The translations under genes and the position numbers were made by a program. A stretch of DNA of 64,000 nucleotides, from NCBI GenBank assembly GCA_963701385.1, contig CAVOZW010000027.1, forward strand, positions 132,602 through 196,601, given 5' to 3'. This DNA comes from an uncultured delta proteobacterium. GTDB lineage: Bacteria; Desulfobacterota; Desulfobacteria; Desulfobacterales; B30-G6. Of this stretch, positions 5,486 to 40,338 are shown piece by piece (the first letter of the stretch is position 1; each line of letters begins with the position of its first letter). Below the pieces are notes generated by a model. That model worked only from the letters and a program-made list of their open reading frames with translations, was not told the DNA's origin and did not search any database.

Positions 5486-5517
5486 AAGCCCAAAAAGAGA
5501 CCTATTAAATTACTACC

Positions 5518-6735: not shown

Positions 6736-6892
6736 TTACCTAAATCAAAGTCAACTCAAAATGCGATGGTATGTCCTTTGAAAAATCCAAGTTCAAAATA
6801 GGGTCTTTCTGGCGCATTGAACATATTGCCGAAGCAGCCTCTCTTATGATATGGGCCTAGTAAGCATCCTTTGATACACGAAGGGAATTCTT

Positions 6893-16589: not shown

Positions 16590-16732
16590 AACAACATAGT
16601 TGTCACTGTCACAATGTTACATGTAATCGGATTGTTGCAGAAGATCACCCCATGGTCTATTAAATCTCTTCCGGACACCATGGCCCTGTCGAATCCAAAA
16701 ATGCATACAACGTCGTCGGAGTGCTTCTTGAC

Positions 16733-21496: not shown

Positions 21497-21502
21497 ACCC
21501 AC

Positions 21503-23229: not shown

Positions 23230-23243
23230 ACCAAGGAGTGACT

Positions 23244-24617
23244 TTGTCTAGCGAGGAAACTGAAAAAAAAGTTTACCAAAATCAGACCGCCAGAGCCTTT
23301 ATCTTGACGTCTGCCTCCTGGTTCGCCGTGGCCACCACGTTCGGGCTTATGGCCGCAGGATACCTGATGGCGCCCGACTTCATGGCCAATATCGAATTTA
23401 TTCACTTCGGACGCCTGCGCCCCATGCATGTCAACGCTGTGCTGTTCGGATTTGTGACCCCCGGCCTGCTGGCAGTTGCCTTTTATTACTTGCCCAGACT
23501 GCTGCGCACTGAACTCTATAGCCACAAGCTGGGTGTCCTGACTGCCATTTACTGGAACATAACCTTGACGGTGGGCATGGTCGGTGTTTCCCTGGGGCAC
23601 ACCCAGGGCCGGGAGTATGCAGAACTGCCGTGGATCGTGGACATCATGGTGGTCATCGCCTTCTCTTTGGTGGTCATCAACCTGCTCATGACCATCGCCA
23701 AGCGCAAAGAGCCCATCCTGTATGTTTCCATCTGGTATGCCATGTCGGCGGTCATCCTCACGGCCTGTACCTATTGTCTCGGAAATGTTATCTGGAAACC
23801 GGATACCGGTGCGCTGGTGGGTATCCCCGATGCAATTCTGTTGTGGTTTTATGGCCACAACATCTTCGGTCTCCTGTTATCCCCCATGGCACTGGGTGTG
23901 GCCTATTATGTTCTGCCCATCGCCACCCGCAGACCGCTTTACAGTCACACCATGTCTCTGGTGGGGTTCTGGTCGCTCATCATTGTCTATACCCATGTGG
24001 GAACCCATCACCTGCTCCAGGTACCGGTACCCACCTGGTTGAAAACCATCTCCATTGTGGACAGCGTGGCCATGGTTATTCCGGTTATGATTGTATTGAT
24101 CAATCTCTGGTACACGGTCAAAGGCAAGTTGGGGGATATTCACGCAGACGTAGGCGCCAAGTTCGTATTCACCGGAACCATCTATTATTTCTTCGTCAAC
24201 ATGCAAGGATCCATGATGGCCCTGCCGCATGTCCAGCGCATCACCCACTTTAATAACTGGGTTGTGGGGCATGCACATATCGGTGTACTCGGATTTGCCG
24301 GTATCACAGCCCTGGGCGGTATCTATTTCATTCTACCCAGAATGACCGGCAAACCGCTTTACAGCAGATTCCTCGCGGACTTGCAATACTGGCTGGTCCT
24401 GATCGGGATCACCGGCTTTGCTGTGGTTCTCACCACCGTGGGTCTGATTCAGGGGAATGCCTGGTATAACGGTGAAACGCTCTACCGGACACTGCCTGAA
24501 ATTCAGCCCTACTATATATTAAGGGCTTCTTTGGGCACCTTGATCATGCTAGGCGCTTATCTTGGATTGTACAACGTGGTTCGATCCCTGTATTTCAATC
24601 GTGGAGCTTCAACATGA
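23244..24617 (+). CDS. ccoN: cbb3-type cytochrome c oxidase subunit I (CcoN)
   Basis: TTG start with AAGGAG 7 nt upstream. The listed ORF start at 22875 overlaps actA and is an artefact. 'FGRLRPMHVNAVLFGFV' and 'NWVVGHAHIGVLGFAG' are CcoN-type motifs. About 12 TM segments. Confidence 0.85.
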   Translation: MSSEETEKKVYQNQTARAFILTSASWFAVATTFGLMAAGYLMAPDFMANIEFIHFGRLRPMHVNAVLFGFVTPGLLAVAFYYLPRLLRTELYSHKLGVLTAIYWNITLTVGMVGVSLGHTQGREYAELPWIVDIMVVIAFSLVVINLLMTIAKRKEPILYVSIWYAMSAVILTACTYCLGNVIWKPDTGALVGIPDAILLWFYGHNIFGLLLSPMALGVAYYVLPIATRRPLYSHTMSLVGFWSLIIVYTHVGTHHLLQVPVPTWLKTISIVDSVAMVIPVMIVLINLWYTVKGKLGDIHADVGAKFVFTGTIYYFFVNMQGSMMALPHVQRITHFNNWVVGHAHIGVLGFAGITALGGIYFILPRMTGKPLYSRFLADLQYWLVLIGITGFAVVLTTVGLIQGNAWYNGETLYRTLPEIQPYYILRASLGTLIMLGAYLGLYNVVRSLYFNRGAST

Positions 24618-25546
24618 AGATGACGCCAACCGTCATCATTGTCGGTATTCTGTCGCTGCTGACGGCCATTACCCTGACCATTGTCTATTGGCCGTATGCG
24701 ACACGTATTACGGAGCCTTCTGAAATTTTCCGCCAACGGATGCCAATGGAGATCGCCGGACGCAAAATCTACCTGGAAAACGGCTGCGTTTATTGTCACA
24801 GCCAGTCCATTCGTTCCATCGACTGGGGCCACGGTGCAGATCGAATTGCCCAGCCCGGTGACTATATTGCCGATGAACCCATTGCACTGGGGTCTCAGCG
24901 TACCGGTGTCGACCTCTCCCAGGAAGGCGGCGAACACCCGGACGATTGGCATATAGCCCATTTTATCAACCCGCGCTACACCCGCCCGGCTTCCATCATG
25001 CCACCTTTTGAGTGGCTGGGCACGGCGCGCATCCAGACCTTGACCCAATACGTGCAGAGCCTGGGATTCAAGAATGCGGACAAACGCATGCAGCGGCAGC
25101 GCTACTGGAAAAAAGAATCCATTTCAGCCTACGAAGCCGGACCCGATGTCAATGCCCAATGGCTGTCCGATATCACGCCCCAGGGTTGGCGAAACATCCC
25201 CAACCCATACCCAACCTCCACCGCTAGTCTGCAGCGTGGTCGAAAAATATATCAGTATTTCTGTATCGGCTGTCATGGGCCCATTGGTGACGGTATGGGG
25301 CCGGCACAGCCCTGGATCTATCCACCGCCCTTGAATTTTACCGTGCTAAAGGGAAGAAACATATCAGGCGGCATTCTTTACTACCAGATTATGAACGGCA
25401 TCACCGGAACGGCCATGCCCTATTTTAAGCGTGATCTGGAATCACAGAAAATTTGGGAAGTGGGCGACTATGTCGCGGTCTATTTTATCAATCAAAGCGA
25501 TGCCAACGCAGAACCGCGGGGTATCGATTCGGCGTGGGAACCCTAA
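24614..25546 (+). CDS. ccoO: Fused cbb3 oxidase cytochrome c subunits (CcoO domain plus a C-terminal CcoP-like monohaem domain)
   Basis: ATGA overlap with ccoN. 'GRKIYLENGCVYCHSQ' and 'WHIAHFINPRYTRPASIMPPF' are CcoO-type. The second haem site is 'GRKIYQYFCIGCHG...GTAMPYF'. Confidence 0.8.
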   Translation: MKMTPTVIIVGILSLLTAITLTIVYWPYATRITEPSEIFRQRMPMEIAGRKIYLENGCVYCHSQSIRSIDWGHGADRIAQPGDYIADEPIALGSQRTGVDLSQEGGEHPDDWHIAHFINPRYTRPASIMPPFEWLGTARIQTLTQYVQSLGFKNADKRMQRQRYWKKESISAYEAGPDVNAQWLSDITPQGWRNIPNPYPTSTASLQRGRKIYQYFCIGCHGPIGDGMGPAQPWIYPPPLNFTVLKGRNISGGILYYQIMNGITGTAMPYFKRDLESQKIWEVGDYVAVYFINQSDANAEPRGIDSAWEP

Positions 25547-25676
25547 GGGCAGGGTCCAAGGGTGATACAAGGGTTGCAGGGTAAGCCCTAAGGCTGTGAG
25601 CTAAAAACAACCCAACAAACTCAATGAACTAAAGATCTCTCGAATCCTTTAAATAAAATAAGACAGGAAAACGGTC

Positions 25677-25937
25677 ATGTACTTCCCCTATTACATCGCC
25701 TACATGACGGCCGGATTTGTCATCACCCTGGTGGTGTTCTTCTGGGCCTTGAACCAGGGTCAATTCAAGGACCAGGATCGCGCACGCTTTTTGCCGCTGG
25801 AGGCCGATGGCAATAGCAAGTCTTTAAAGGCTTCACGCTTTGCCCGTATGGAAACCATCGCGCTGTTTGCCCTGGTGGGTGTCGGCTTGGCAGCATCGGC
25901 GGCAGTTGTTACCTTTGCACTCTACAAGGCCTTATAA
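25677..25937 (+). CDS. ccoS: CcoS/FixS-like cbb3 oxidase maturation protein with an extra C-terminal TM helix
   Basis: 'YMTAGFVITLVVFFWALNQGQFKDQDRARFLPL' matches the CcoS pattern. At 86 aa it is longer than the usual 50-70 aa. Confidence 0.7.
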   Translation: MYFPYYIAYMTAGFVITLVVFFWALNQGQFKDQDRARFLPLEADGNSKSLKASRFARMETIALFALVGVGLAASAAVVTFALYKAL

Positions 25938-25947
25938 GGATAAGACG

Positions 25948-26223
25948 ATGAGATATTTCGAACTTCTGGGGGTTCAGCATTATATCATGTATCTGTTCCC
26001 CGCTATTGTGTTCGCACTGCTGTTTGCCATCGGCCTCGGATTTTATCACTTCCGAACCAAGGATGCTGCGGATCGCGAAAATCGCATCATCGAAGAATTT
26101 CCCGACGGCATCCAAGGTCGCAACGCCCCGTTTCCGGCCATCGCCTACGTGACCATTGCAGGAACCCTCGTCTGGGTGTTGGCGTATATACTGACGATAG
26201 GTTTAATGGAGATGAACATTTGA
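25948..26223 (+). CDS. Small two-TM membrane protein, unknown function (91 aa)
   Basis: ATG 10 nt after the ccoS stop. There are hydrophobic helices at both ends. Confidence 0.5.
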   Translation: MRYFELLGVQHYIMYLFPAIVFALLFAIGLGFYHFRTKDAADRENRIIEEFPDGIQGRNAPFPAIAYVTIAGTLVWVLAYILTIGLMEMNI

Positions 26224-26507
26224 TGCCACAGACAGGACACCATACCTCGGCAATAAAAACCTGGTCCATCGTTGTTCTGATGGTGGGATGGGTGTTTTTC
26301 AAAGGCTGGCTGGCATATCATGTTGTCGGTGATCTTGGGCAGCCGGACTGGGATTACCGGCCCATAAATGACGTCCCGGCGGAATCCGCGTATGCCGTCA
26401 ACAAACCATACCATCCGCTGCCATTTGCTCAGCACGTGCGAGGTCAACAGGGAAATGAGGAAAACCCATCACACTTATCCGTTGTGAGGGTTCAAGGTGT
26501 GCCATAA
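26223..26507 (+). CDS. Small single-TM protein, unknown function (94 aa)
   Basis: Its ATG overlaps the upstream TGA (TGATG). One TM helix ('WSIVVLMVGWVFFKGWLAY'). Confidence 0.45.
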   Translation: MPQTGHHTSAIKTWSIVVLMVGWVFFKGWLAYHVVGDLGQPDWDYRPINDVPAESAYAVNKPYHPLPFAQHVRGQQGNEENPSHLSVVRVQGVP

Positions 26508-27020
26508 ATGAAAAAACTGGGTGGACTCTTCATCGCCGTTACCATCATCGCCCTGATAGCCTATCAGGCCCTGATGTACTACGATAACAATTTCCGCTAC
26601 GGTCGGATGCGGGAAACCCCGGGGGTAAAACCCCACGAGGATCCCCTGTTGATTCTGGAAACGGGTATTGTCCCGATCCATGGGGGAGATGCCGCCTATC
26701 GTTTGATGCCGACGACCGAACTCGTTTCACCGCTGAACATGAAAGCATCCACCACCATTGCCAGAGGTCAAGCGTTGTACCGGGTATACTGTGCACAGTG
26801 TCACGGCATCAACTACGACGGCAACGGTACCGTTGGACAGAGTTTTCAACCGCTACCGGCCAACCTCCTAAGCGCCGGGGTTCAGTCAAAATCGGAAGCT
26901 GAATTGTTCAAATCCATCAGCTTCGGTATTCCAAACGGTCGTCAGCCGGCCCTCGATACAACCATCACACAAGATGACCGCTGGTATATCATCGCCTTTG
27001 TCCAGTCCCTGGGTTCATGA
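26508..27020 (+). CDS. actE: Membrane-anchored monohaem cytochrome c (ActE-like)
   Basis: ATG directly after the upstream TAA. N-terminal TM segment. 'RGQALYRVYCAQCHG' and 'DDRWYIIAFVQSL'. Confidence 0.65.
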   Translation: MKKLGGLFIAVTIIALIAYQALMYYDNNFRYGRMRETPGVKPHEDPLLILETGIVPIHGGDAAYRLMPTTELVSPLNMKASTTIARGQALYRVYCAQCHGINYDGNGTVGQSFQPLPANLLSAGVQSKSEAELFKSISFGIPNGRQPALDTTITQDDRWYIIAFVQSLGS

Positions 27021-29545
27021 ATAAAACAACTTGTGATCTATGCGGCTTATCTCTCCGTCATGGTGCCGTTAGGGCAGTCATTTCCGAAAAATCACTGCAA
27101 TTTTGCTGCTTCGGCTGCAAACAGGTCTATGAAATGCTGTTGGCAGCATCAGGCGACCTGGATCCGGAGTCCTTCAGAAAGACAGACGTTTTCAAGCGCT
27201 GTGTGGCGGCCGGCATCATTCCGGAATCCATGGAGGACCTCGAAAAAAAGAGACCGGTTGTCACATCGGGAAAAGATCCCGGCCAGATCCCGGAACCCGG
27301 AATCGTCGACACCGAGCCCGTGTCTGAATCGGATAAGGGGTTGTGGCTCGATCTGAATGTCAGGGGCATGTGGTGTCCGGCCTGCGCCTGGGTAATTGAA
27401 GAGACCTTGCTCAAAGAACCCGGTGTCAAACACGCCAGATGTCAGTTCACCACGGATCGCATCAAGATCAATTACAAACCGGTTCTCACCTCTCCCCGAG
27501 TCTTGATGGATGCCATCGGAAAGCTTGGATACCATGGCAGCCCTGCCGAGGATGGACAACCAACATCCGATTCCAGAAGCGCATTTGTCCGTCTGGGTAT
27601 TTCAGCCTTTCTGACCATGAACGTGATGATGCTGTCCTTTGCCCTGTATACGGGCTTTTTCACCCAACTCTCGGCCGATGCCATCCATCACCTCACCTGG
27701 CCCATCGTAAGCATGGGATCGGTTGTTTTTTTCTACGCAGGCGCCCCGATTCACCGCAAAGCCCTGTCCGGGCTGACCTCAGCCTCCCCCGGCATGGAAA
27801 CGCTCATCAGTATTGGTGCCGGGAGCGCTTTTATGCTCAGTTTTTACAACTGGCTAACAGGGAGCATCCACCTCTATTTTGACACCGCATCCATGTTGAT
27901 TACCCTGGTACTGCTGGGCAAAACCATCGAACAGTCTGCCAAAAACAAAATCAGCGCTCAGATCAGCAGGTTTTTTGAACTTCAGCCTTCCAAAGTCCGA
28001 GTATGCACGGCTCAATTTCCCCAGGGCAGGTATGTGAACGCCAAACAGCTGTTGCCCAAAGATGTCTTCAGGGTCGAAGCAGGGGAAATCGTCCCGGCGG
28101 ACGGAAAAATTAAGCGGGGAAGCGCACGCGTCGATGAAAGCACCTTGACCGGCGAAGCAAGACCGATCCATAAACAAAAGGGAGACATCCTGAACAGCGG
28201 TACAACGATCCTCTCCGGTTCTCTCCAGGTAACGGCTCACGCCGTGGGTGAGGACTCCCTGGTTGGTCAGTTGATATCCGTGATGGAAGCTTCCCTCGAT
28301 CAGAAGTCCGATATGGAGGACATTACCGACAAGGTTCTTAAATACTTCGTTCCCGCCATTATGCTGCTCGCCTTGGGAACGGCCGTCGTCTGCCTGGGGC
28401 TCGGTTTCAGTTTGCAGCATGCCATCCTTCGTGCCGTCACCGTCATGGTGATCTCCTGCCCCTGCGCCTTGGGCGTTGCCATTCCACTGGCAAGGGTGGC
28501 CGGTATCTCTTTGGCAGGCAAACACGGCATCCTGGTTCACCACTTCTCGGCCTTCGAAAAGATCGGAAAAGTCAATGCCTTTGTTTTCGACAAAACCGGC
28601 ACCCTCACCAGGGGCGAATGGAATTTGATTGAAACGGAGGCCTTGAACGACTGGCCGGTAAACAAGATTCTTGCCCTTGCCGCAGGCTTGGAGATCCATT
28701 CGCGCCATTATGCCGGAGAGGCCATCGCTCATGCTGCCAAGGAAAAAAATATTGCCCCGGCAACAGCCACACACGTAACGGAAACGGACAATGGTATTTC
28801 CGGCTATGTCGATAACCGTCTGGTCAAAATCGGATCTGCTGCTTTCTTGTCCGCTGAAGCCGACAGCGACCGGCAATATCATGGCCATGGAAAAACGGAA
28901 ACGGCACCCGTCATTTCGACCGTACACATGCATGTTGATGAAAAGCCCTGTGCCCTGTTTCATTTTGGCGATGCACTTCGTGAATCAAGCAAAACCGTCA
29001 TTCAAGGCTTGAAAGACCGCGCTATGCAGCTGGCTCTGATATCGGGAGACGATCAACGAACAACCCGTATGATCGGCGATCTTGTCGGTATCTCGGAATG
29101 CCACGGCAGTATGCTGCCAGAAAATAAATCTGAATTTGTTAACACCTTACGGGACCAGGGCTATTGTGTCGCCATGGTCGGCGACGGCGTCAATGATGTG
29201 CCGGCGCTGGCTTCCGCCGACCTGGGAATCGCCGTTCATTCCGGGCATCGCATCGGCATGGAAGCCTCCGGTATTACCTTGATGGGCAATGACCCCGCAC
29301 AGATACTCAGCTTCTCTGCACTCGCCTCACAAGTCTCGCGCACGATTCAACAGAATCTCGTCTTCACCTTTCTTTACAACATCATCAGTATCCCCATCGC
29401 CATGAGCGGCCTGCTGAATCCGCTGGTTGCGGTTTGCGCCATGCTCATGAGCAGTCTGAGCGTTACGGGGAATACCCTTTACCTCACCCGGCGGGTATCT
29501 AAATTTATAACGAGCACAAAAGTGCGACAATGCCGCATCCAATAA
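27017..29545 (+). CDS. ccoI: Copper-translocating P1B-type ATPase, CcoI/FixI type
   Basis: ATGA overlap with the upstream gene. N-terminal 'CDLCGL...FCCFGCKQVYEML' domain. HMA 'MWCPACAWVIE'. TM motif 'SCPCALG', then 'FDKTGTLT' and 'GDGVNDVPAL'. Confidence 0.85.
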   Translation: MNKTTCDLCGLSLRHGAVRAVISEKSLQFCCFGCKQVYEMLLAASGDLDPESFRKTDVFKRCVAAGIIPESMEDLEKKRPVVTSGKDPGQIPEPGIVDTEPVSESDKGLWLDLNVRGMWCPACAWVIEETLLKEPGVKHARCQFTTDRIKINYKPVLTSPRVLMDAIGKLGYHGSPAEDGQPTSDSRSAFVRLGISAFLTMNVMMLSFALYTGFFTQLSADAIHHLTWPIVSMGSVVFFYAGAPIHRKALSGLTSASPGMETLISIGAGSAFMLSFYNWLTGSIHLYFDTASMLITLVLLGKTIEQSAKNKISAQISRFFELQPSKVRVCTAQFPQGRYVNAKQLLPKDVFRVEAGEIVPADGKIKRGSARVDESTLTGEARPIHKQKGDILNSGTTILSGSLQVTAHAVGEDSLVGQLISVMEASLDQKSDMEDITDKVLKYFVPAIMLLALGTAVVCLGLGFSLQHAILRAVTVMVISCPCALGVAIPLARVAGISLAGKHGILVHHFSAFEKIGKVNAFVFDKTGTLTRGEWNLIETEALNDWPVNKILALAAGLEIHSRHYAGEAIAHAAKEKNIAPATATHVTETDNGISGYVDNRLVKIGSAAFLSAEADSDRQYHGHGKTETAPVISTVHMHVDEKPCALFHFGDALRESSKTVIQGLKDRAMQLALISGDDQRTTRMIGDLVGISECHGSMLPENKSEFVNTLRDQGYCVAMVGDGVNDVPALASADLGIAVHSGHRIGMEASGITLMGNDPAQILSFSALASQVSRTIQQNLVFTFLYNIISIPIAMSGLLNPLVAVCAMLMSSLSVTGNTLYLTRRVSKFITSTKVRQCRIQ

Positions 29546-29564
29546 AATCGTGTGACGATTTTAT
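29542..29564 (+). terminator. AT-rich 10-3-10 palindrome ATAAAATCGT-GTG-ACGATTTTAT overlapping the ccoI TAA stop, followed by TTTT
   Basis: The arms are identical to those at 3252-3274. The stop codon sits at the same position in the left arm. Confidence 0.45.
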
Positions 29565-29569
29565 TTTGG

Positions 29570-29597
29570 TTGACAAATCAGGCGATTAAGTTAAATT
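29570..29597 (+). promoter_or_regulatory. Candidate sigma70 promoter for the ubiG operon
   Basis: TTGACA, 16 nt, TAAATT, about 75 nt upstream of the ubiG ATG. Confidence 0.4.
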
Positions 29598-29671
29598 TGA
29601 ACCGCCCGTCTGCGACAGGGTGGTCACGTTTCTCTTGCCAGGGGTAAAACACGCATGTTCCCGAACAGTTG

Positions 29672-30379
29672 ATGAACGAATCCAACGAAAATATCGATCT
29701 TAGCGAAATTCTGCATTTTGATCGTCATGCTGTGGAATGGTGGGATCTCAAGGGCCCCCTGAAAGCGCTGCATGACATCAATCCGTTACGCCTGCAGTAT
29801 ATTGAAAAACACGCCGGTATTGCGGGTAAAACGTTTCTGGATGTCGGTTGCGGTGGTGGGATCCTGTCGGAATCGCTGTCCTCGTCCGGTGGACATGTGA
29901 CCGGAATAGATATGACCGACTCTGCCTTGCGTGCGGCCAGGGGGCATTTGAAAAAGACAAACAAGCTGGTTCAATACCGCCGCACAACGGTGGAAACGCT
30001 TTCAAAAAAAACCCAAAACCGTTACGATAGCATTACCTGCATGGAATTGTTGGAGCATGTTCCCCAGCCATCATCGGTGCTCAGTGCCTGTGCCCAACTT
30101 CTTAAACCAGGCGGCGATATGTTTATCGCCACCATCAACCGTACCTGGATTGCATATGCTTTGGTGATTCTGACAGCTGAGTATCTCTTGCGAATTGTGC
30201 GCAAGGGAACCCATACATATCAACAGTTTATTCAGCCCCAGGAAATTGACCATTGGGCAACGGATAGCGGCTTGAAAACAATGGATCTTTGCGGATTTTT
30301 ATACAACCCCTTTACAGGAAAAACACGTTTTTCATCTTTCACCAAAATGAATTACTTGATGCATTTGAGAAAACGATGA
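29672..30379 (+). CDS. ubiG: Ubiquinone biosynthesis O-methyltransferase UbiG
   Basis: Collinear with E. coli UbiG as I remember it: 'WWDLKGPLKALHDINPLRLQYI', 'LDVGCGGGILSES', 'CMELLEHVPQPSSVLSACAQLLKPGG', 'AEYLLRIVRKGTHTYQQFIQPQE', 'NYLMH'. Confidence 0.9.
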   Translation: MNESNENIDLSEILHFDRHAVEWWDLKGPLKALHDINPLRLQYIEKHAGIAGKTFLDVGCGGGILSESLSSSGGHVTGIDMTDSALRAARGHLKKTNKLVQYRRTTVETLSKKTQNRYDSITCMELLEHVPQPSSVLSACAQLLKPGGDMFIATINRTWIAYALVILTAEYLLRIVRKGTHTYQQFIQPQEIDHWATDSGLKTMDLCGFLYNPFTGKTRFSSFTKMNYLMHLRKR

Positions 30380-31236
30380 ACAAACCGATAAAAAACAAAC
30401 CCAGCGACTGGAAACCGCCGGCCTGGCTTGATAAAAAGGAACGCCAGAAGATGTTCGATGCCCATGTGGACTCATCAGACACGGCCTACTTTGGGTTCAG
30501 GCCGCATCGGACCGCTGAAAAGGTAAAAACCGTTTTATCGCATTTCAACCGCGTGGCCCCCAAGTATGATTTTATGAACACCGTCCTCAGTTTCGGGATT
30601 CATTACGCCTGGAAAAGAACCGCCATCCGTATGCTCAATTTAAAACCGGGTGATCAACTCCTGGATGTCTGTGGCGGTACCGGGGACCTGGCGGTCATGT
30701 CCGTTCCACGCATCGGGGCTGCTGGTCGTGTCTTTATCTATGATATCAATCGCGCCATGATGATGACCGGAAGAGACCGACCTGAAAACCAGGAAAATCG
30801 CACATGTATTCACTATATCGAAGGAGATGCGGAACAGATCGCCTGCCGGGAGAATCGATTTGATGCGGCCATTGTCGGGTTTGGCATCCGGAACCTGACC
30901 CATCTTGAAAAAGGGTTCCGGGAAATGTACCGGGTCTTGAAACCGGGTGGAAAGGTCATGTGTCTGGAGTTCTCAAAGCCCACCAATCCCCTGTTCCGCT
31001 GGTTGTATGATTTTTATTCCTTCAATATAATGCCTTTTGCCGGTTCTGTCCTTGCCGGTTCGTGGCAGTCTTATGCCTGCCTATCCCAAACCATCCGTAT
31101 GTTTGCATCTCCCGATGAATTAAAGGGGATTCTCGAAGACATCGGATTTGAAACTGTTTCCTACAAGCGCCTGACCAACGGTATCGCCGTGATCCATTTG
31201 GGGCACAAACCTCTTACCCGTCCTTCGATGCCTTAA
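30376..31236 (+). CDS. ubiE: C-methyltransferase UbiE/MenG
   Basis: ATGA overlap with ubiG. 'YFGFR', 'FNRVAPKYDFMNTVLSFGIHYAWKR', 'LDVCGGTGDLA', 'GFGIRNLTHLEKGFREMYRVLKPGG'. Confidence 0.88.
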   Translation: MNKPIKNKPSDWKPPAWLDKKERQKMFDAHVDSSDTAYFGFRPHRTAEKVKTVLSHFNRVAPKYDFMNTVLSFGIHYAWKRTAIRMLNLKPGDQLLDVCGGTGDLAVMSVPRIGAAGRVFIYDINRAMMMTGRDRPENQENRTCIHYIEGDAEQIACRENRFDAAIVGFGIRNLTHLEKGFREMYRVLKPGGKVMCLEFSKPTNPLFRWLYDFYSFNIMPFAGSVLAGSWQSYACLSQTIRMFASPDELKGILEDIGFETVSYKRLTNGIAVIHLGHKPLTRPSMP

Positions 31237-31269
31237 GTCGTTTGTCGATATCCAAAAAGGATTCAGAGA

Positions 31270-32427
31270 ATGTTTGACTACAACCGGAAAACCGATTTTG
31301 ATCGTGGGAAAATCGTCCAGATTGACAACGTTCTGGATGCATCATCTCCCATCTTCTTCGGATATGATATCGAAGCGCAATTCGCCAATGCTCTCGAACG
31401 GTCGACCCACGATATGCCTGCCGACAGGCTTTTCTTGCTGACGGACCGCACGATCTTCGATCTTTTCGGTGAATCGTTTTTAGGCAGGCTCAGTGAAAGG
31501 TTTCCAGACACGGAACTGTACTTCCTGCCCGAGGGAGAACAGTGCAAAAATTTTGAGGTTCTTCAGAAACTTTGCAATCACCTCGTAGAGAAAGGGGTAA
31601 GCAAACAATCCCTGCTGATTGCATTCGGAGGCGGTTCCATCGGAAATATTTCCGGTCTGGCCGCCGGCCTGATATTTAGGGGCATTCGATTCATCGAAGT
31701 CCCCACCACGCTTTCCCACCAGACCGATGGCATGCTCAGCAACAAGCAGGCTGTGAACGGAAAGTTCGGTAAAAACCACTTCGGACTCTACCATACCCCT
31801 TTGTTTTCATGGACGGACACGCGATATCCTGAAACAGAACCCTTGCGGTTCAAAAAATCCGGCATCGTCGAAGGAATCAAAAACGGGTTGATCGATCAGC
31901 TAGAATTTATCCCCTATCTGGAAAAAGCCATCCAAAAGAATGGCGATTATTCTGCACAGCAACTCGCCGACCTCTGCTTCAAACTGATTATTTCAAAGCT
32001 CGAAATTCTCAAAAAGGACCCGACGGAAAAGCACTACGGAATTATCCTTGAATACGGACATACCTTTGCCCACGCCATCGAATGGCTTTCGAAAGGGACC
32101 CTGGCACACGGAGAAGCCGTTTCCATTGGCATGAAAATCGCGGCGGAACTTTCTGCTGAATTGGGATATATTGACAGTGACACACGCCTCCTGCATTACC
32201 GCTTAATCGATGACTTGTTGGCAATGAAACCCAGATTCCCCGAGAATCTTGAACCGGCGACCATTTTCAAAACCATGGTTGTCGATAATAAAAAAACGGG
32301 TCGGGATGTGAGATATGTCCTTCTAAAAAAAATCGGACAATGCCTAAAAGGGAGTGGCGACTATCTCATCAGCGTGGATAAGGAGATCGTTCAGTCTGTG
32401 ATGGGTAAGTTTATTAAAAAGTATTAG
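31270..32427 (+). CDS. 3-dehydroquinate-synthase-like sugar-phosphate cyclase family protein
   Basis: 'LLIAFGGGSIGNISGLAAG', 'IEVPTTLSHQTDGMLSNKQAVN', 'LEYGHTFAHAIE' and 'HGEAVSIGM' are variants of DHQS superfamily motifs. It starts 33 nt after ubiE. Confidence 0.75.
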   Translation: MFDYNRKTDFDRGKIVQIDNVLDASSPIFFGYDIEAQFANALERSTHDMPADRLFLLTDRTIFDLFGESFLGRLSERFPDTELYFLPEGEQCKNFEVLQKLCNHLVEKGVSKQSLLIAFGGGSIGNISGLAAGLIFRGIRFIEVPTTLSHQTDGMLSNKQAVNGKFGKNHFGLYHTPLFSWTDTRYPETEPLRFKKSGIVEGIKNGLIDQLEFIPYLEKAIQKNGDYSAQQLADLCFKLIISKLEILKKDPTEKHYGIILEYGHTFAHAIEWLSKGTLAHGEAVSIGMKIAAELSAELGYIDSDTRLLHYRLIDDLLAMKPRFPENLEPATIFKTMVVDNKKTGRDVRYVLLKKIGQCLKGSGDYLISVDKEIVQSVMGKFIKKY

Positions 32428-32678
32428 AAGCCGTCTCAAAAAAAAATTTGGCCCATTTTATGTGTTCGTCCCTAACTTCAACGCCTCGGAATACTTCAGT
32501 ATGCACCCCAAGGGTACTTCCTGCGGGCGCCTGCGGGTTGAAGATCGGGCCCGCCTTTAACTTGAACCAAAACCCTTTTTTTGAGATGATTGTTATTTAT
32601 GGATCATCTCCAAAAGAGTTGATCTAAATAAAGGATTCGAGGGGTCCAGGGGTCCAGGATTCGAGTGATAGGCTTAAA

Positions 32679-32883
32679 AATTATAAAGAGTTAAACGTTT
32701 GGTAAATATCGTATACACTTTGCTTGCAATCTATAAAGTTTGGAAACCCAAATCATGATATCAGGTGACTTGGGTTATGTGGAAAAAGAGAGGCTTGATA
32801 AATTAAGAGGGGAGATAGGGGATGTTGAGAGAATGCTGAATGCGTTGATAAAATCTCTGGAAAGCAAACACTTGGATCCTTGA
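32679..32883 (+). pseudogene. Remnant of a four-helix-bundle ('23S rRNA intervening sequence') protein gene with an internal deletion
   Basis: An N-terminal piece '..NYKELNVW*' and, in another frame, the C-terminal piece 'MISGDLGYVEKERLDKLRGEIGDVERMLNALIKSLESKHLDP*' (32755-32883). It is flanked by GGATTCGAG/GGGTCCAG and CTTGGATCC repeat blocks. Confidence 0.55.
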
Positions 32884-32904
32884 ATCCTTGGATCCTGGAA
32901 CCCT

Positions 32905-32941
32905 TTCTCCCAACTGATTGGGAGAAGAGCCTTTTTTTTTT
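32905..32941 (+). terminator. Rho-independent terminator
   Basis: TTCTCCCA-ACTGAT-TGGGAGAA stem-loop, then a run of 10 T. Confidence 0.7.
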
Positions 32942-32960
32942 CCTATAAAGAGCGGCCGAA

Positions 32961-33926
32961 ATGGAGAATAGTGCGTTGAAAACATCGACCGGGGTTTCAT
33001 TGCCCGTGACCGCCCCACCTCGTCGGAGCCGATGGGTCCGCACATTGAATGTGACCGATGCGCCGGCCCATACCGACGACCCCCATTGCGGATCCATCGG
33101 TCACGTTCTAGCGTTTCCCGAGAGTTGCCGTTTGGCTGAAAAATTTGAATATGATGCCGTCAATGCGGATCGTTCGTTTTTAAAAGAACACGGCCCCGCT
33201 CAGGTGGTTAGCCTGTTGAAACAACACAAGCTAGAGCCGGGGGCATTTGCTTTTTCGGCGGCATTCAATGCGTGCCATTCCGACCCGGATTTCGAGCAAA
33301 GTCTTGAGGGTTTCGAGCAGGATTTAGCCTTGTGCAGGGAGGCGGGTTTCAAATGTTGCGTGGGATATGTGCAGCCATCGTCCGATAGGCTGGACTATTA
33401 TGATCACTTCTCGCTTTTGCTTGGGCGCTTGAAACGCATCAAACCCCGGCTAGAGGCATATGATGTGCGCCTCGGGTTGGAATTTATCGGTCCGACCACC
33501 ATGCGGGTACGTCGAAAATTTGACTTCATCCACACCATGGACGGCATCAGGAGCCTCATCGCCGCAGCAAACGCACAAAACCGCGTGGGTTTAAAACTGG
33601 ATACCATTCATTGGTATACCAGCGGTGCCGGATTATTGGATATTGAAAAGCTTGCCCCCGATGAGGTTGTTTATGTGGAGATCAACGACGGTCTCAAGGG
33701 GGATTACGACCGCTTCACATTACCCGAGTTTCAACGCGAACTGCCGGGAGCCGTTGGAACCGTCGATGTCGCCGGAATGCTCGGAAAACTGGATACCCTA
33801 GGCTTCGATGGGCCGGTGGTTGTGGAACCATGGAACGAGCAGCTTCGTGAAATGAGCCCTGTGGATGCCATAGAGAAAACAAAGCTTGCCTTGGATCTCA
33901 GTCTGAAAAAGGCCGGGATTCACTAA
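32961..33926 (+). CDS. Xylose-isomerase-like TIM-barrel protein (sugar-phosphate isomerase/epimerase/dehydratase family); 5' end uncertain
   Basis: 'LEFIGPTTMRVRR', 'LKLDTIHWYTSG' and 'VVYVEINDG...GPVVVEPWNE' fit the family. The first ~45 aa look non-native, so TTG 33045 or GTG 33051 are alternative starts. Confidence 0.6.
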   Translation: MENSALKTSTGVSLPVTAPPRRSRWVRTLNVTDAPAHTDDPHCGSIGHVLAFPESCRLAEKFEYDAVNADRSFLKEHGPAQVVSLLKQHKLEPGAFAFSAAFNACHSDPDFEQSLEGFEQDLALCREAGFKCCVGYVQPSSDRLDYYDHFSLLLGRLKRIKPRLEAYDVRLGLEFIGPTTMRVRRKFDFIHTMDGIRSLIAAANAQNRVGLKLDTIHWYTSGAGLLDIEKLAPDEVVYVEINDGLKGDYDRFTLPEFQRELPGAVGTVDVAGMLGKLDTLGFDGPVVVEPWNEQLREMSPVDAIEKTKLALDLSLKKAGIH

Positions 33927-34047
33927 CGCCCGTCTCCATCATAACAAAACCATTCGCATGCTTGCGTCTCCGGATGAATTTTCATGCCCAAACGCGCACA
34001 ACGAAGCATGAAACGGTCTCTTTCATAAACAAAGGGTTCGACGATAG

Positions 34048-35821
34048 ATGATCGATTCCGATAAAATCATCAACACCCTGATCCTTCTAGGATCTGATCC
34101 GATGATAGTAGCGTTGGCCATTATTGTGGCCACTTTTATTTTGGAGGATGCCGCAACAATCGCAGCCGCCATGCTGGCTTCAGATGGTGTGCTGCCGGTA
34201 TATCTGGCGATAATAGCGTTGATAACGGGTATTGTACTGGGAGATGTGGGACTTTACGGTCTCGGCCGTTTGTCCACAAAGAGTCCCTGGGTTCGTCGTT
34301 TGCTTCAGCGACGGAGGGCCATTGATGTGCGCAACTGGATGGTGCCTCGTATTTTTCCCATGGTATTCGCTGCACGCTTCATACCGGGTTCACGGTTGCC
34401 CTCTTACACGGCTTCAGGACTGTTCGGTCTTCCTTTTGGGCGCTTTGCCATGGCAGCCTTTCTGGCGGTGACCCTGCAGACATCGCTGCTCTTTACATTG
34501 ATGATTTACTTCGGTATCTATTTTCGGGATCGGCTGGGAGGGTGGCGCTGGGTTCTGGCAGGGGGGGTCGTATTGGTTATCATCGGTATTTCACGACGCT
34601 ATCGACGCGCTCTTCCGTCATCAAGCCATTTGAAGGGCAGCAGATCCAACTCCAGAAAAACACAGTGGCCGACAAAGCACCAGAGAACAACAAACAAAGA
34701 ACTGAATGGACCAAAAATAGTGGCCGGTATTCCAGGAATGCCGCCCATCGATCTCAATCAACCACCGCTATCCTTTTACGAATTCTGGCCGACCTGGTTG
34801 TTTTACATTCCCATTGCCCTGACATGGGGAGTGCTCGCACTTCGCTACCGCTCCATTACCCTGCCGACAGTGGCAAATCCCTTGTTTCCGGAGGGAGATT
34901 TAACAGGTGAGTCCAAGTCAAAGATATTGGACCTCGTCCTGCCTGAGGGGAAAAAATGGTTCGCCCGGCATGTCACCTTGAATCGATCTCATCCATCCGG
35001 GGCCGTTGTGGCAGACATACAACGTACAATGACACGATTATCTGAAGCAGGGATTTCTTTTCCCGTGGTTTCCAAACCTGACATAGGGTGCCGTGGCGTA
35101 GGTGTAAGACTGTCCAAAAATGAAAAAGAATTGGCCGATTACATGGCCAACTTCCCCCCCGGTCAAACGATTTTATTTCAGGAATACATTCCCTACGAAC
35201 CGGAAGCGGGTATATTTTATATTTGCCTTCCTGGTGAGTCAAAAGGGTTTATTTTTTCGATCACTCTAAAGTATTTTCCCCGTGTCATCGGTGACGGACG
35301 ATCGACACTGAGAGAATTGATCGAAAAGGATCCACGGGCAGGCCAGAATCAAGCAGGTCTATTTACCAAGACATGCCAGCCAGTTGGAAAGGGTGCTTCC
35401 TGCGGATGAAACTTTCAGACTCAATTTTGCCGGCAGCCACAGTCGCGGGACAATTTTCCGTAACGGTAATGCCTACATTACGCAGACCCTATGTGACACC
35501 TTCGATAAAGTGGCCAAAACGGTCCCTGGGTTCTATTTTGGGCGATTCGATGTTCGCTTTCCCGATTTTAAAGCACTGCAGAGGGGAGAAGATTTTAAAA
35601 TAGTCGAAATCAACGGTGCCGGCGGGGAGGCCACCAGCATTTGGGACAGCGCCACCTCGCTAGGGGACGCGTATCGAACCCTCATCCGTCAGTGGTCCCT
35701 GCTCTTCAGAATAGGGGACTTAAACCGTGCCAGAGGCTTTCGGCCCGTTAGCCTGGCAACCCTTTTCCGAAACTATCGCCTGGAAAAAAAATTATCGAAG
35801 AAGTATCCATTGACCGAATAA
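34048..35821 (+). pseudogene. DedA/VTT-domain membrane module fused to an ATP-grasp ligase domain, interrupted by a 1-nt frameshift near 35340
   Basis: The N-terminus 'ILEDAATIAAAMLASDGVLP...GDVGLYGLGRL...ARFIPGSRLPSY' is DedA-like. The ATP-grasp region runs 'FPVVSKPDIGCRGVGVRL...LFQEYIPYEPEAGIFY...DPRAG', then continues in the next frame as 'ARIKQVYLPRHASQLERVLPADETFRLNFAGSHSRG...FYFGRFDVRF...IVEINGAGGE'. Confidence 0.6.
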
Positions 35822-35959: not shown

Positions 35960-37810
35960 ATGCCGAAGTTCATTGATTTGCAGAATACCGTCGATCATCC
36001 AGCGGCTCGGATGCTCATTAAAGTATTCCAAAAACCCTTGGAGCGTATACTGGCCCTGGATCGATTGAATGAGTTGTATGCCATTCTCCAGGAAAGATTG
36101 GAAAAGGGTCTTCAGGAGACTTCCGTATTTGATACGATTCTGGACGTGTTGGATGTTCAATATGATACAAAAAAACATGCCCTTGAAGAGATTTCCAACC
36201 AGGGTCCGCTTGTGCTCGTATCGAATCACCCTTTTGGTGCCATCGAGGGAGTTATTGCGGGTTCCCTGTTATTAAAAGCCAGACCCAACGGTCGTATCCT
36301 CGGCAATTATCTGCTGAATCGTGTTGCCGGTCTTCGCGAATACATCATCGCGGTGGATCCTTTTGAGAACCCTGGTATATCAACAACCAACCTGAAAGGA
36401 TTGAAGCAGTGTCTCCACTGGTTGAGGCAGGGAAATGCACTGGTCACATTTCCGGCTGGAGAGGTTGCCAGCTATCGACTCACCAAAGGACGCGTGGTTG
36501 AACCGGCCTGGGCGTCACATATCGGCGCACTTGTCAGACTTTCCAAGGCGACGGTGCTACCCCTGTATTTCCCTGGGAGAAACAGCGTTTTCTTCATGCT
36601 GGTGGGACTGCTACACCCCCGTTTTCGAACGGCCATGTTGGTCCGGGAGTTGATCAAAAAAACCGGAAAACGCCTGACCGTCCACATCGGAAGACCGGTT
36701 TCATGGCAATATCTTCGTCGTTTTTCCACAGATGAAGCGCTTACGGGGTGCCTGCGACTGAAGATGGAAATCCTTAAGATTCGGGATCAAAAGCACCCGT
36801 TCGTTAGCCAACGTTTACATGTTCGTCATAAAGCAGAGCCGTCCTTGCAACCATTGATCGATCCCATCCCCATATCTCTTTTGAAAAAGGAAATAGGACA
36901 TCTTCCCAAAGGTCAGCTACTGTTTGAGAGAGGCGATTTTAGAGTATTTATCGCAAACAGCACCCAGATACCCCATCTGATGAATGAGATCGGCCGCTTG
37001 AGGGAATTAACCTACCGCGATGTTGGAGAAGGGACCGGTCGTTCCCTGGATCTGGATCGCTTTGATGCTTATTATCTGCATCTCTTTTTATGGAACCAGA
37101 CGACATCAGAATTGATCGGTGCTTATCGAATGGGACTGGTAGACCAAATCATAAGCACCAAGGGCCAAAAGGGTTTATATACCAACGCCCTTTTCCGTTT
37201 TGCGCCGGGGTTTATGGATTATTTGGATGGCGCCATCGAGGTCGGACGTTCTTTTGTAAGGCCCGAATACCAGAGAAAATTCAACAGTCTTATATTGATC
37301 TGGCGAGGGATCGGTGAATTTATCAGGCGAAATCCACGCTATCGAATTTTGTTCGGGCCTGTCAGTATCAGCAGCGATTATCATGCGGTTTCTAGAACGC
37401 TGCTGGTAAAATTTCTTAAAGAGAATAAATTCAATAATGAACTGTCAACTTTTGTGTCTGCCCGGTGCCCATTTCGATCTCCATGGACCGATCACCTGGA
37501 TGAAACCTTGATGCAGGCCAACATACGCGATGTTGAAGACATTTCGTTTATCATTTCAGAAATTGAAAATGACGGTAAAGGGATTCCCGTTCTATTGAAG
37601 CATTATCTCAAGTTGAACGGAAAATTACTCAGTTTCAATGTGGACAAGACGTTTTCCGGTGTGCTTGACGGATTGCTGTATGTGGATCTGCGTGAAACCG
37701 ATCCCAAGATATTGAACCGGTTTATCGGAACCAAACACCCGGCGAACATTGCCCCTAGAAAGTGCTATGAAGCAGGAAAGGTTTGCTGGCATCACTCTCT
37801 CAAGCCATAA
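35960..37810 (+). CDS. Bifunctional acyltransferase, OlsF-like (N-terminal PlsC-type O-acyltransferase plus C-terminal OlsB-type N-acyltransferase)
   Basis: 'VLVSNHPFGAIEGV' and 'FPAGEV' are PlsC blocks. 'IGRLRELTYRDVGEGTGRSLDLDRFDAYYLHLFLWN...LIGAYRM' is an OlsB/hemolysin-like GNAT sequence. Confidence 0.6.
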   Translation: MPKFIDLQNTVDHPAARMLIKVFQKPLERILALDRLNELYAILQERLEKGLQETSVFDTILDVLDVQYDTKKHALEEISNQGPLVLVSNHPFGAIEGVIAGSLLLKARPNGRILGNYLLNRVAGLREYIIAVDPFENPGISTTNLKGLKQCLHWLRQGNALVTFPAGEVASYRLTKGRVVEPAWASHIGALVRLSKATVLPLYFPGRNSVFFMLVGLLHPRFRTAMLVRELIKKTGKRLTVHIGRPVSWQYLRRFSTDEALTGCLRLKMEILKIRDQKHPFVSQRLHVRHKAEPSLQPLIDPIPISLLKKEIGHLPKGQLLFERGDFRVFIANSTQIPHLMNEIGRLRELTYRDVGEGTGRSLDLDRFDAYYLHLFLWNQTTSELIGAYRMGLVDQIISTKGQKGLYTNALFRFAPGFMDYLDGAIEVGRSFVRPEYQRKFNSLILIWRGIGEFIRRNPRYRILFGPVSISSDYHAVSRTLLVKFLKENKFNNELSTFVSARCPFRSPWTDHLDETLMQANIRDVEDISFIISEIENDGKGIPVLLKHYLKLNGKLLSFNVDKTFSGVLDGLLYVDLRETDPKILNRFIGTKHPANIAPRKCYEAGKVCWHHSLKP

Positions 37811-39642: not shown

Positions 39643-40338
39643 CTAATAGCGCAGTCCCTTCCAGATAAAATAGAGCCCCACCACCATCATCAGCAGCGCG
39701 CCGAGCTGGTAGACCTTTTCCCGATGCCGCAGCCAACGCAGATCCGTGAGTCTCGATACGAGAAAAAGTGCGGGTATGGTGCCGAGGCCAAAACTGGTCA
39801 TGAGACCCGCCCCGGAAAGCACGCCGCCCAGGGTGTTGTCTGCCTCCATTCCGGAACGGGCGGCAGCAAGCAGGGCCGTGTAAACCGGTCCGCAGGGCAG
39901 CAGCCCCAGAAGCAGTCCGAGAGGCAGGTACATCAGCGAGCGTTTCTTTTTGTGCAGCAGCTTCGTAAAGATCTTGGTGATGAACGTGCCGATAGGCGGC
40001 GCGGCGCGAAAAATGACACTGCTGCGGATCCAGCCGGTCATTGCCAGACCCATCAGCGTGATGATGACACCAGCAGCCACCATGACCCCTTTCTGCAGGC
40101 CGTCGATGCTTTCCGCAAAGCGTGTAAAAGAGGCCATACCACCGACGACCGCACCCAGGAGTCCATAGGTCAATGTTCGGCCGACATTGTAAAACAGGTG
40201 CGGCCAGACCGACGGGCCGCCTTTCAATTGCAGCGAGAGCGATATGACGATGGGCCCGCACATGCCGATACAGTGCCCGAAACCGACAGTCACACCGGTT
40301 GTAAAAAACAGAATATAGATGGAATTAGTAGACAACAT
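39643..40338 (-). CDS. TauE/SafE- or DsbD_2-type membrane protein (commonly associated with cbb3 assembly genes)
   Basis: The 'GFGHCIGMCGPI' motif and about 6 TM segments. The ATG at 40338 overlaps the upstream FixH-like stop by 14 nt. The listed start at 40419 lies inside that gene. Confidence 0.65.
   Translation of the reverse strand: MLSTNSIYILFFTTGVTVGFGHCIGMCGPIVISLSLQLKGGPSVWPHLFYNVGRTLTYGLLGAVVGGMASFTRFAESIDGLQKGVMVAAGVIITLMGLAMTGWIRSSVIFRAAPPIGTFITKIFTKLLHKKKRSLMYLPLGLLLGLLPCGPVYTALLAAARSGMEADNTLGGVLSGAGLMTSFGLGTIPALFLVSRLTDLRWLRHREKVYQLGALLMMVVGLYFIWKGLRY

Follow-up and report, generated by a model that had tools for sequence, protein, structure and literature searches.

What ring could the products of a ubiG-ubiE pair methylate in a lineage for which no ubiquinone pathway is predicted, and why is the pair followed there by a gene for a sugar-phosphate cyclase? 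These questions are raised by a 64,000-nucleotide stretch of DNA from an uncultured delta proteobacterium of the Desulfobacterales (contig CAVOZW010000027.1, positions 132,602 to 196,601; hereafter the window), in which ubiG, ubiE, a cyclase gene of the 3-dehydroquinate synthase (DHQS) superfamily and a gene for a xylose-isomerase-like triose-phosphate isomerase (TIM) barrel form a cassette. A 2026 survey predicts the ubiquinone pathway in Desulfobacterota only in class GWC2-55-46, and menaquinone elsewhere (PMC13386864), which leaves the presence of ubiG in Desulfobacterales otherwise unexplained. Our analysis points, with a probability that we put at roughly 0.45, to a gene set for a prenyl-benzoquinone, methoxylated and methylated, in which a cyclitol made from sugar, and not chorismate, would be the source of the ring. 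That the cyclitol module, i.e. the cyclase and the TIM barrel, is functionally linked to the ubiG, ubiE and UbiA-family genes appears probable to us from their arrangement across genomes. The features of the window on which this interpretation draws are the following, where DOIS stands for 2-deoxy-scyllo-inosose synthase.

29570-29597, plus strand: sigma-70-like promoter candidate before ubiG, TTGACA-16 nt-TAAATT, 10/12 matches in a consensus scan.
29669-30379, plus strand: ubiG-family O-methyltransferase gene, full length, TIGR01983 260 bits against a cutoff of 102.95.
30376-31236, plus strand: ubiE/menG-family C-methyltransferase gene, PF01209 244.5 bits.
31270-32427, plus strand: DOIS-type sugar-phosphate cyclase gene of the DHQS superfamily, PF01761 89 bits, PF24621 87 bits.
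32428-32960, no strand: inserted spacer of 533 nt that relatives do not have.
32961-33926, plus strand: xylose-isomerase-like TIM-barrel gene, PF01261 86.1 bits (gathering threshold 31.1), E 4e-24.
48204-49172, minus strand: divergent UbiA-family prenyltransferase gene, PF01040 96 bits.
50257-51969, plus strand: ABC1/UbiB-family atypical kinase gene, PF03109 256 bits, TIGR01982 425 bits against a cutoff of 487.6.

Is the company of these genes conserved? UbiG homologues of the window protein (50-97% identity in Desulfobacterales) were searched and their neighbourhoods fetched, giving 29 Desulfobacterales loci including the window; individual loci are hereafter designated by L and a number. The ubiE gene follows ubiG in all 29, and in 14 of the 29 the pair stands behind ccoI, either directly or with only a cyclitol module between. 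The linkage of the cyclase to ubiG-ubiE, on whose conservation in relatives the initial annotation had made its reading depend, holds in the six closest loci (L003, L005-L008 and L091), which keep the order ccoN-ccoO-cytochrome c-ccoI-ubiG-ubiE-cyclase-TIM, encode cyclases 82-89% identical to that of the window and have the TIM gene abutting the cyclase gene, but it does not hold in the Desulfosarcina clade or in several other ubiG-ubiE loci. In L088, L096, L114, L115 and L177, a cyclitol synthase gene of the myo-inositol-1-phosphate synthase (MIPS) family and a TIM-barrel gene of a subfamily other than that of the window are located immediately upstream of ubiG-ubiE. This synthase matches PF01658 and PF07994, and its nearest named structures are myo-inositol-1-phosphate synthases, e.g. 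1u1i. The MIPS-TIM pair stands behind the cbb3 oxidase genes and ccoI in L088 and L177, the latter holding a full set of cbb3, ccoI, MIPS, TIM, ubiG and ubiE genes with DsbD_2, a 139-residue open reading frame (ORF) and UbiA on the opposite strand; in L177 and L096 little space is left between the cyclitol module and ubiG-ubiE, or the genes overlap. Identity between the MIPS-linked TIM barrel and the TIM partner of a DOIS-type cyclase in Desulfosporosinus (L075), whose subfamily is seen also in other Firmicutes and in Holophaga, is 31%, and this similarity ties the DOIS-type and MIPS-type modules together. Two unrelated enzymes, both of which close a hexose phosphate to a C6 cyclitol and each of which has a TIM barrel with it, have thus been drawn to one methyltransferase pair in one respiratory setting. 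The presence of MIPS-TIM beside ubiG-ubiE is the decisive observation of this study, as it represents a non-homologous displacement and an independent re-creation of the linkage.

One of the MIPS loci, L088, shows an irregularity of its own: on this 1.1-Mb contig the ccoI, MIPS-like and TIM genes (5277-10001) are each broken into overlapping frames, most likely through assembly indel error rather than pseudogenization.

A UbiA-family gene at 48204-49172 and a ubiB at 50257-51969 had been placed in the window by the initial annotation. The first is present and, though 15 kb off, belongs with the cassette because its product is 53-65% identical to UbiA proteins encoded next to ubiG-ubiE elsewhere (64.6% to that of L096, beside MIPS-TIM-ubiG-ubiE, and 53% to that of L087, beside ubiG-ubiE). 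In six loci (L087, L096, L097, L099, L169 and L177) the gene immediately behind ubiE is a convergent one of the UbiA family. The translation of the window gene shows the two Asp-rich prenyltransferase motifs (NDIVDFRTD and DIELD). Among the NCBIfam models, no UbiA, MenA or MqnP equivalog is reached: the protein scores 46.8 bits against a cutoff of 275 for ubiA_proteo (TIGR01474), and its best match is ubiA_other, with 71.7 bits against a cutoff of 180.8. This position outside all equivalogs fits an unusual aromatic substrate. The gene at 50257-51969 does belong to the ABC1/UbiB family, and its product may be an accessory factor, but its score stays under the UbiB cutoff. The four genes of the cassette and the UbiA-like gene most likely constitute a Desulfobacterales gene set attached to the alternative complex III (ACIII)-cbb3-CcoI cluster described below.

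In the window and in the relatives closest to it, the contiguous genes are only ubiG, ubiE, cyclase and TIM, the UbiA-like gene being at a distance. This could also be read in another way, in which UbiG and UbiE methylate an unprenylated polyhydroxybenzene to a soluble methoxy-methyl-hydroquinone that serves as an antioxidant or electron shuttle, and no membrane quinone is formed. The class I methyltransferases and exporters found in cyanobacterial versions of the cyclase cluster are compatible with such a product. We nonetheless consider it improbable given the UbiA orthologue directly adjoining in the six loci just listed, and given that prenylated rings are the established substrates of the UbiG and UbiE families.

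What does the cyclase make? Its gene starts 33 nt past the ubiE stop, with an AAGGA ribosome-binding site in front, and its translation contains the motifs GGGSIGN, PTTLSHQTDGMLSNKQAVN and EYGHTFAHAIE, all as first described. The residues expected of the DHQS superfamily, namely the Glu/His/His metal ligands together with Lys and Asn, are present (E201, H264, H280, K159, N169 and K243 are conserved). Public annotations name the protein 3-dehydroquinate synthase and DHQ_synthase Pfam domains match it, as would be expected if it were a housekeeping AroB whose position behind ubiE is incidental. The initial annotation had proposed a check for a true AroB, and this check came out against it. The cyclase reaches 223.6 bits against a cutoff of 305 for the aroB equivalog TIGR01357, and in the alignment its Gly257 and Glu261 stand at the positions of AroB Arg264 and Asn268 (A. 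nidulans numbering), where the E. coli and Listeria AroB proteins have Arg and Asn. Arg264 is the residue that binds the carboxylate of 3-deoxy-D-arabino-heptulosonate 7-phosphate. The solved structure nearest to the cyclase is that of the DOIS BtrC (PDB 2d2x, E 5e-48), with DHQS structures just behind. Glu261 pairs with BtrC Glu243 at a constant offset of 18, and the latter is regarded as the DOIS-specific catalytic residue. The combination of Glu at the Asn268 position with a small residue at the Arg264 position is invariant in 28 of 28 sampled family members, and it is also found in all DOIS references, including those from aminoglycoside-like plasmid clusters. The window cyclase further shares Lys141 and the metal ligands with BtrC, the residue at the Arg264 position being Gly or Ala; with AroB it has in common the fold of the superfamily, the residues that bind phosphate, and the ligands of NAD and of the metal.

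A neighbour-joining tree (261 columns, 200 bootstraps, AroB as outgroup) resolves the cyclase family as a clade of its own (99% bootstrap), separate from AroB and sister to, rather than inside, the clade of DOIS from aminoglycoside clusters (94%), a placement that is incomplete because EboD, the synthases of 2-epi-5-epi-valiolone, of 2-epi-valiolone and of desmethyl-4-deoxygadusol, and amino-DHQS are not in the tree. Landmarks for this tree came from a search of a plasmid collection, whose matches were all DOIS genes of the aminoglycoside type or AroB genes (30-34% identity). The window cyclase is 35% identical to BtrC, approximately 35-37% to aminoglycoside DOIS and 33% to AroB. Gene context separates it from both groups: unlike aminoglycoside DOIS genes, members of the window family are never beside aminotransferase, glycosyltransferase or radical-SAM genes, and unlike aroB, they pair with a TIM-barrel gene (about 70 of 79 loci) and never adjoin aro genes. 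We reject the identification as AroB, to which we leave almost no probability, because the protein scores below the equivalog cutoff, does not have Arg264 and carries the DOIS Glu. We classify the cyclase as an enzyme of the hexose-phosphate to deoxy-inosose type, in a clade without a characterized member, and not as part of shikimate housekeeping.

How does the TIM barrel fit such a cyclase? The gene is intact, as its product aligns end to end with its orthologues (80% identity with that of L003 and 75% with that of L004). A profile of the window-type TIM family retrieved only two convincing solved structures, 3u0h (E 3.7e-23), for which the PDB gives no function, and IolI (E 4.7e-15), which is the closest characterized structure and which the PDB names only "IOLI PROTEIN". 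IolI is the inosose isomerase of B. subtilis. The fold includes inosose dehydratases and dehydroshikimate dehydratases, and IolI, IolE, AsbF and QuiC, which belong to the same Pfam family as the window TIM barrel, all act on cyclohexanone polyols. Several acidic and His residues are invariant across the window-type family (E174, D214, H217, E240 and E289) and are predicted to bind a metal. The TIM barrel, the conserved partner of the cyclase, may be an inosose dehydratase or isomerase. AsbF and IolE are weak matches of the MIPS-linked TIM type. The scores of all the TIM barrels are far under the cutoffs of the IolE, AsbF and QuiC equivalogs (22.9 bits against 1200 for the window protein and the QuiC model, 48.4 bits against 290 for the L096 protein and the IolE model), a range in which sequence cannot tell the substrate, or an isomerase from a dehydratase. 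A single-sequence structure prediction of the TIM barrel was unusable (mean pLDDT, the predicted local distance difference test, of 41.9).

The initial annotation had also pointed to a second TIM-barrel gene starting at 63448. An ORF of the AP_endonuc_2 family does start there, after an acyl-ACP thioesterase gene (62384-63415), and is cut by the end of the window at 64000, but its tie to the cassette did not hold: its best match is CbiR (49 bits against a cutoff of 105), a cobamide-remodelling phosphodiesterase, and BLAST shows no similarity between it and the TIM barrel of the cassette. We therefore rejected it as a member of the set.

The association of a DHQS-like C6 cyclitol synthase, a xylose-isomerase-like TIM barrel and a UbiA-family prenyltransferase recalls the ebo (thallusin) cluster, with which the locus had been compared from the start. 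In the ebo system a cyclitol gives rise to the aromatic scaffold, and prenylation follows at the stage of hydroxylated quinoline intermediates; some lineages swap the cyclase for an inositol-phosphate synthase with isomerases or dehydratases. The ebo system thereby sets a precedent both for the order cyclitol, aromatic ring, prenylation and for the swap of a cyclase by an inositol-phosphate synthase. Could the window set then be a reduced ebo-type cluster, in which cyclase, TIM barrel and prenyltransferase would be EboD-like, EboE-like and EboC-like, respectively? The enzyme classes and the logic are the same, but neither the window nor the conserved neighbours of the 79 cyclase loci presented below contain eboA, eboB (TatD-like), eboC or eboF (PF01663). 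Against the EboE model NF035939 (cutoff 250), the window TIM barrel gives no match at E <= 0.001 and the L096-type TIM barrel gives 30.3 bits. Conversely, ebo clusters are without ubiG and ubiE, whereas the partners in the window are these quinone methyltransferases and a respiratory oxidase cluster, with no aspartate-derived quinoline chemistry implied. Membership in the ebo clusters was therefore rejected on gene content and on the EboE model, and we hold it to be very unlikely; the comparison stands as an analogy.

Which other steps of quinone synthesis accompany the set? The ubiG ORF opens with TTG at 29669, ATG at 29672 being the likelier start, and the UbiG orthologue of L096 is likewise above the TIGR01983 cutoff, with 232 bits. 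The ATGA overlap of the ubiG stop with the ubiE start was confirmed by direct reading. UbiE exceeds the cutoffs of the TIGR01934 subfamily (230.9 bits against 158) and of NF001244 (222 bits against 216) and remains below those of the other UbiE models and of the best-scoring model, MpqE (252 bits against 335). No ring hydroxylase (UbiI, UbiH, UbiF, UbiL, UbiM, Coq7 or UbiU/V/T) and no decarboxylase (UbiD/X) turned up in the 64-kb window or the loci that were fetched. This agrees with the initial annotation, which had seen no ring hydroxylase; no FAD-monooxygenase or U32 (UbiU/V) gene is present among the window ORFs. The locus thus has several points in common with the canonical ubiquinone routes, whether O2-dependent (UbiI/H/F) or O2-independent (UbiT/U/V, including that of GWC2-55-46): a UbiG that exceeds the equivalog cutoff, a methyltransferase of the UbiE subfamily, and genes of the UbiA and ABC1/UbiB families. 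It differs from them in that UbiC, UbiD, UbiX and hydroxylase genes are absent from the window and related loci, in that the UbiA-like protein scores far under the 4-hydroxybenzoate prenyltransferase cutoffs, in the cyclitol synthase and TIM barrel that sit in the operon, and in its host, since Desulfobacterales are not predicted to make ubiquinone (PMC13386864).

These findings suggest the following route. The DOIS-type cyclase, whose class follows from its sequence, would convert hexose 6-phosphate into a deoxy-inosose, which the TIM barrel would isomerize and dehydrate to a polyhydroxybenzene. The stoichiometry is compatible with such a step, as 2-deoxy-scyllo-inosose minus two waters equals 1,2,4-trihydroxybenzene; work by Frost and Kakinuma reportedly showed that 2-deoxy-scyllo-inosose undergoes this dehydration chemically. 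The divergent UbiA-type enzyme would then prenylate the ring, and UbiG and UbiE, whose families are established and whose substrates here are proposed, would carry out O-methylation and C-methylation, respectively. Prenylated 1,2,4-trihydroxybenzene corresponds to 2-polyprenyl-6-hydroxy-1,4-benzoquinol, which UbiG acting once, followed by UbiE, would turn into demethoxyubiquinol. The oxygenation pattern of 1,2,3,4-tetrahydroxybenzene is that of the ubiquinone ring, and from the known reactions of UbiG and UbiE a route through this compound could lead to ubiquinol itself. In canonical ubiquinone synthesis the ring oxygens are added by hydroxylases. Here they would come from the sugar, so that no ring hydroxylase, decarboxylase or O2 would be needed, and the proposal would explain in this way why no hydroxylase or decarboxylase gene lies beside the set. 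The quinone produced would serve the neighbouring quinol-oxidizing ACIII and the cbb3 oxidase. Acid catalysis has been described to dehydrate myo-inosose to 1,2,3,4-tetrahydroxybenzene (PMC11467972).

A more specific version of this proposal is put forward tentatively. Desulfobacterales would make a high-potential benzoquinone, either ubiquinone or demethoxyubiquinone, de novo from hexose phosphate: a DOIS- or MIPS-type synthase and a TIM dehydratase would yield a tri- or tetrahydroxybenzene, on which a dedicated UbiA, UbiG and UbiE would act in turn. The quinone would be made independently of shikimate, hydroxylases and O2 and be fed to ACIII and cbb3; we regard this version as possible rather than likely.

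Does the cyclase-TIM pair always keep such company? A scan for the cyclase family, with one genome per species, gave 79 loci, whose neighbours were clustered by local BLAST and checked through representatives against Pfam. A TIM gene of the AP_endonuc_2 family lies near the cyclase in about 70 of the 79 and falls into three subfamilies. An orthologue of the window-type TIM gene adjoins the cyclase in 28 loci, from Desulfobacterota, some cyanobacteria, Janthinobacterium, Noviherbaspirillum and Oligoflexia. In 34 further loci, mostly cyanobacterial, the order is cyclase, major facilitator superfamily (MFS) transporter, second AP_endonuc_2 subfamily and short-chain dehydrogenase/reductase (SDR), and eight loci (Firmicutes, Holophaga and Desulfobacter) have the third subfamily, several with a zinc-dependent alcohol dehydrogenase (ADH) gene. 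The near-universal pairing indicates that a DOIS-type cyclase with a TIM barrel is an ancient module.

The cyanobacterial arrangement of cyclase, MFS transporter, TIM of a different subfamily and SDR is conserved in loci within L013-L073 (e.g. L030, 8001-13363) and shows several additions. A class I methyltransferase gene has joined the cluster in L034 and L070, and a vanadium-haloperoxidase-like gene in L053, which hints at a phenolic product; in the Okeania loci L026 and L028 the cyclase gene is duplicated in tandem. Rubrerythrin genes adjoin MIPS-TIM in L178 (7341-10174) and cyclase-TIM in L004 (10001-12839) and L001, so that the two cyclitol modules are found in similar neighbourhoods even without ubiG-ubiE.

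This distribution raises the possibility that the pair makes a cyclitol small molecule unrelated to quinones, for instance a protective, redox-active or exported one, and that ubiG-ubiE is its neighbour only through a shared oxygen-responsive island; ubiG-ubiE and the UbiA-like gene would then act on a conventionally derived ring or on menaquinone. In favour of it, cyclase-TIM pairs of cyanobacteria, Burkholderiales and Firmicutes keep company with MFS exporters, SDRs and ADHs and not with ubi genes, the pair is separated from ubiG-ubiE in the Desulfosarcina clade, rubrerythrin genes adjoin the modules in the three loci just named, and many ubiG-ubiE loci have no cyclitol module. Such a molecule would not account, however, for two non-homologous cyclitol synthases, each with its TIM barrel, that independently flank ubiG-ubiE on either side, and it leaves unexplained both a UbiG orthologue in lineages without a predicted ubiquinone pathway and a UbiA outside all known quinone prenyltransferase equivalogs. 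We therefore rate it as a serious possibility that is rather unlikely to be correct.

Several observations weigh against a cyclitol-derived quinone. Cyclase-TIM pairs without ubi genes, in the company of MFS, SDR or ADH genes, occur in cyanobacteria, Burkholderiales, Oligoflexia and Firmicutes, and the module is for this reason not specific to quinones. Within the Desulfosarcina clade, whose cyclases are 68-71% identical to that of the window, cyclase-TIM lies near ACIII and there is no ubiG-ubiE within 8 kb, while in L101, L102, L105, L111, L170 and L171 neither a cyclitol gene nor UbiA is near ubiG-ubiE, and L176 and L178 carry a MIPS-TIM pair by itself. The MIPS route requires a phosphatase and an oxidation step, neither of which is seen in the operon. 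The window-type and MIPS-linked TIM subfamilies have no significant BLAST similarity to each other, and neither reaches a dehydratase equivalog model. In the window, the spacer and its terminator-like hairpin part the cyclase gene from the TIM gene. The product of ubiE could simply be a menaquinone methyltransferase, and the question of ubiD, ubiX, ubiH, ubiU, ubiV and a second ubiE was covered for the window and the fetched loci only. The locus counts are not fully independent because several loci probably come from closely related populations and are near-duplicates. Finally, all the support comes from gene order and genomic context. The original suggestion that the cyclase, with or without the TIM barrel, supplies a head group not derived from chorismate is partly supported: it has gained from the non-AroB nature of the cyclase, the linkage kept among the closest relatives and the tie to UbiA, and has lost from the patchiness of that linkage and the occurrence of the pair without ubi genes elsewhere.

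In what respiratory setting would a cyclitol-derived quinone be used? The G+C content of the window is about 50%, and the closest relatives of its proteins are from Desulfobacterales and "delta proteobacterium" metagenome-assembled genomes (MAGs) and from Desulfosarcina. A complete-looking cluster for ACIII, a cbb3-type oxidase and CcoI lies directly upstream of ubiG (16721-29545), with the following genes assigned through Pfam; the last line gives a neighbour downstream of the cassette that is syntenic with the gene set in relatives.

16721-19672, plus strand: ActB, ACIII subunit.
19669-20985, plus strand: ActC, ACIII subunit.
20975-21496, plus strand: ActD, ACIII subunit.
21503-22720, plus strand: ActF-like ORF, ACIII.
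22717-23229, plus strand: multihaem cytochrome c, ACIII.
22875-24617, plus strand: CcoN ORF, cbb3-type oxidase.
24614-25546, plus strand: CcoO/P, cbb3-type oxidase.
26508-27020, plus strand: cytochrome c.
27017-29545, plus strand: CcoI/FixI-type P-type ATPase.
39643-40419, minus strand: DsbD_2 membrane protein.

The same upstream order precedes ubiG-ubiE in L003, L005-L008, L091, L101, L102, L104, L105, L111, L171 and L177, and homologues of DsbD_2 adjoin the module in L004, L009, L010, L049, L114 and L177. With these upstream genes, and relatives of the sulfate-reducer type, the cassette appears as the tail of an oxygen-respiration island. The ACIII-cbb3-CcoI island is found again in many related MAGs, each time with ubiG-ubiE behind it.

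How might the cassette be expressed? The TTGACA/TAAATT site noticed earlier before ubiG is present, and the motif is kept in the ccoI-ubiG intergenic DNA of L005, L006 and L007 and partly in that of L003, with variable flanks. The number of such sites in the promoter scan is at chance level (8 found, 6.1 +/- 2.8 expected), and the site at 29570-29597 may work as a promoter. Just behind it, at 29598-29640 of the window and at the same position in L003 and L005-L007, CCGTTTGCGACAAGG is kept; this sequence may be an operator or leader element. A scan of 29000-34500 against Rfam gave no structured RNA match.

The TIM gene had been described as following a decayed spacer. It does follow a spacer, but this is an insertion with an element resembling a miniature inverted-repeat transposable element (MITE) rather than decayed sequence; in L003-L008 the TIM gene comes approximately 0-20 nt after the cyclase gene. 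The MITE-like element has terminal inverted repeats at 32631-32665 and 32878-32904, which are imperfect and some 35 nt long. The spacer carries tandem 8-nt CTTGGATC/CTTGAATC units, and a promoter-like site and a terminator-like hairpin lie in it at 32825-32854 and 32904-32927, respectively. Fragments of the spacer are found again in intergenic DNA of L003, L008, L090, L091 and L097.

Downstream of the cassette, an ORF with a VTT/DedA domain and a RimK-like ATP-grasp domain (34048-35409) overlaps another ORF in a different frame (35384-35821), and the two look like one frameshift-split gene, through sequencing error or as a pseudogene. They are followed by a gene for an OlsF-like bifunctional ornithine-lipid synthase (35960-37810, 377 bits against a cutoff of 620), which is not kept beside the cassette in relatives. 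Elsewhere in the window, a gene for a large DUF6785/DUF6784 protein beside FtsX-like permease genes (1216-3255) and a MoxR-DUF58-DUF4129 trio (6893-10441) are unrelated to the gene set.

Literature searches on cyclitol-derived respiratory quinones, on 2-deoxy-scyllo-inosose dehydratases and on the quinones of sulfate reducers with ACIII and cbb3 gave no account of this gene set, nor of a respiratory quinone made from a cyclitol. To our knowledge, the rings of all known respiratory quinones are derived from chorismate, through 4-hydroxybenzoate, 1,4-dihydroxy-2-naphthoate or futalosine, or homogentisate. The new part of the proposal would be the source of the head group for quinone or meroterpenoid biosynthesis, and in its working the set would most resemble the ebo logic, joined to the final steps of ubiquinone synthesis. 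If correct, a pathway in which a sugar cyclitol supplies the ring with its oxygens already in place would represent a new solution to quinone biosynthesis and would offer a short, five-enzyme, oxygen-independent route for the engineering of coenzyme-Q-like molecules. It would also explain the orphan ubiG genes of sulfate reducers regarded as menaquinone-only, and would matter for the understanding of how oxygen-reducing chains are equipped in anaerobes and of how high-potential quinones evolved.

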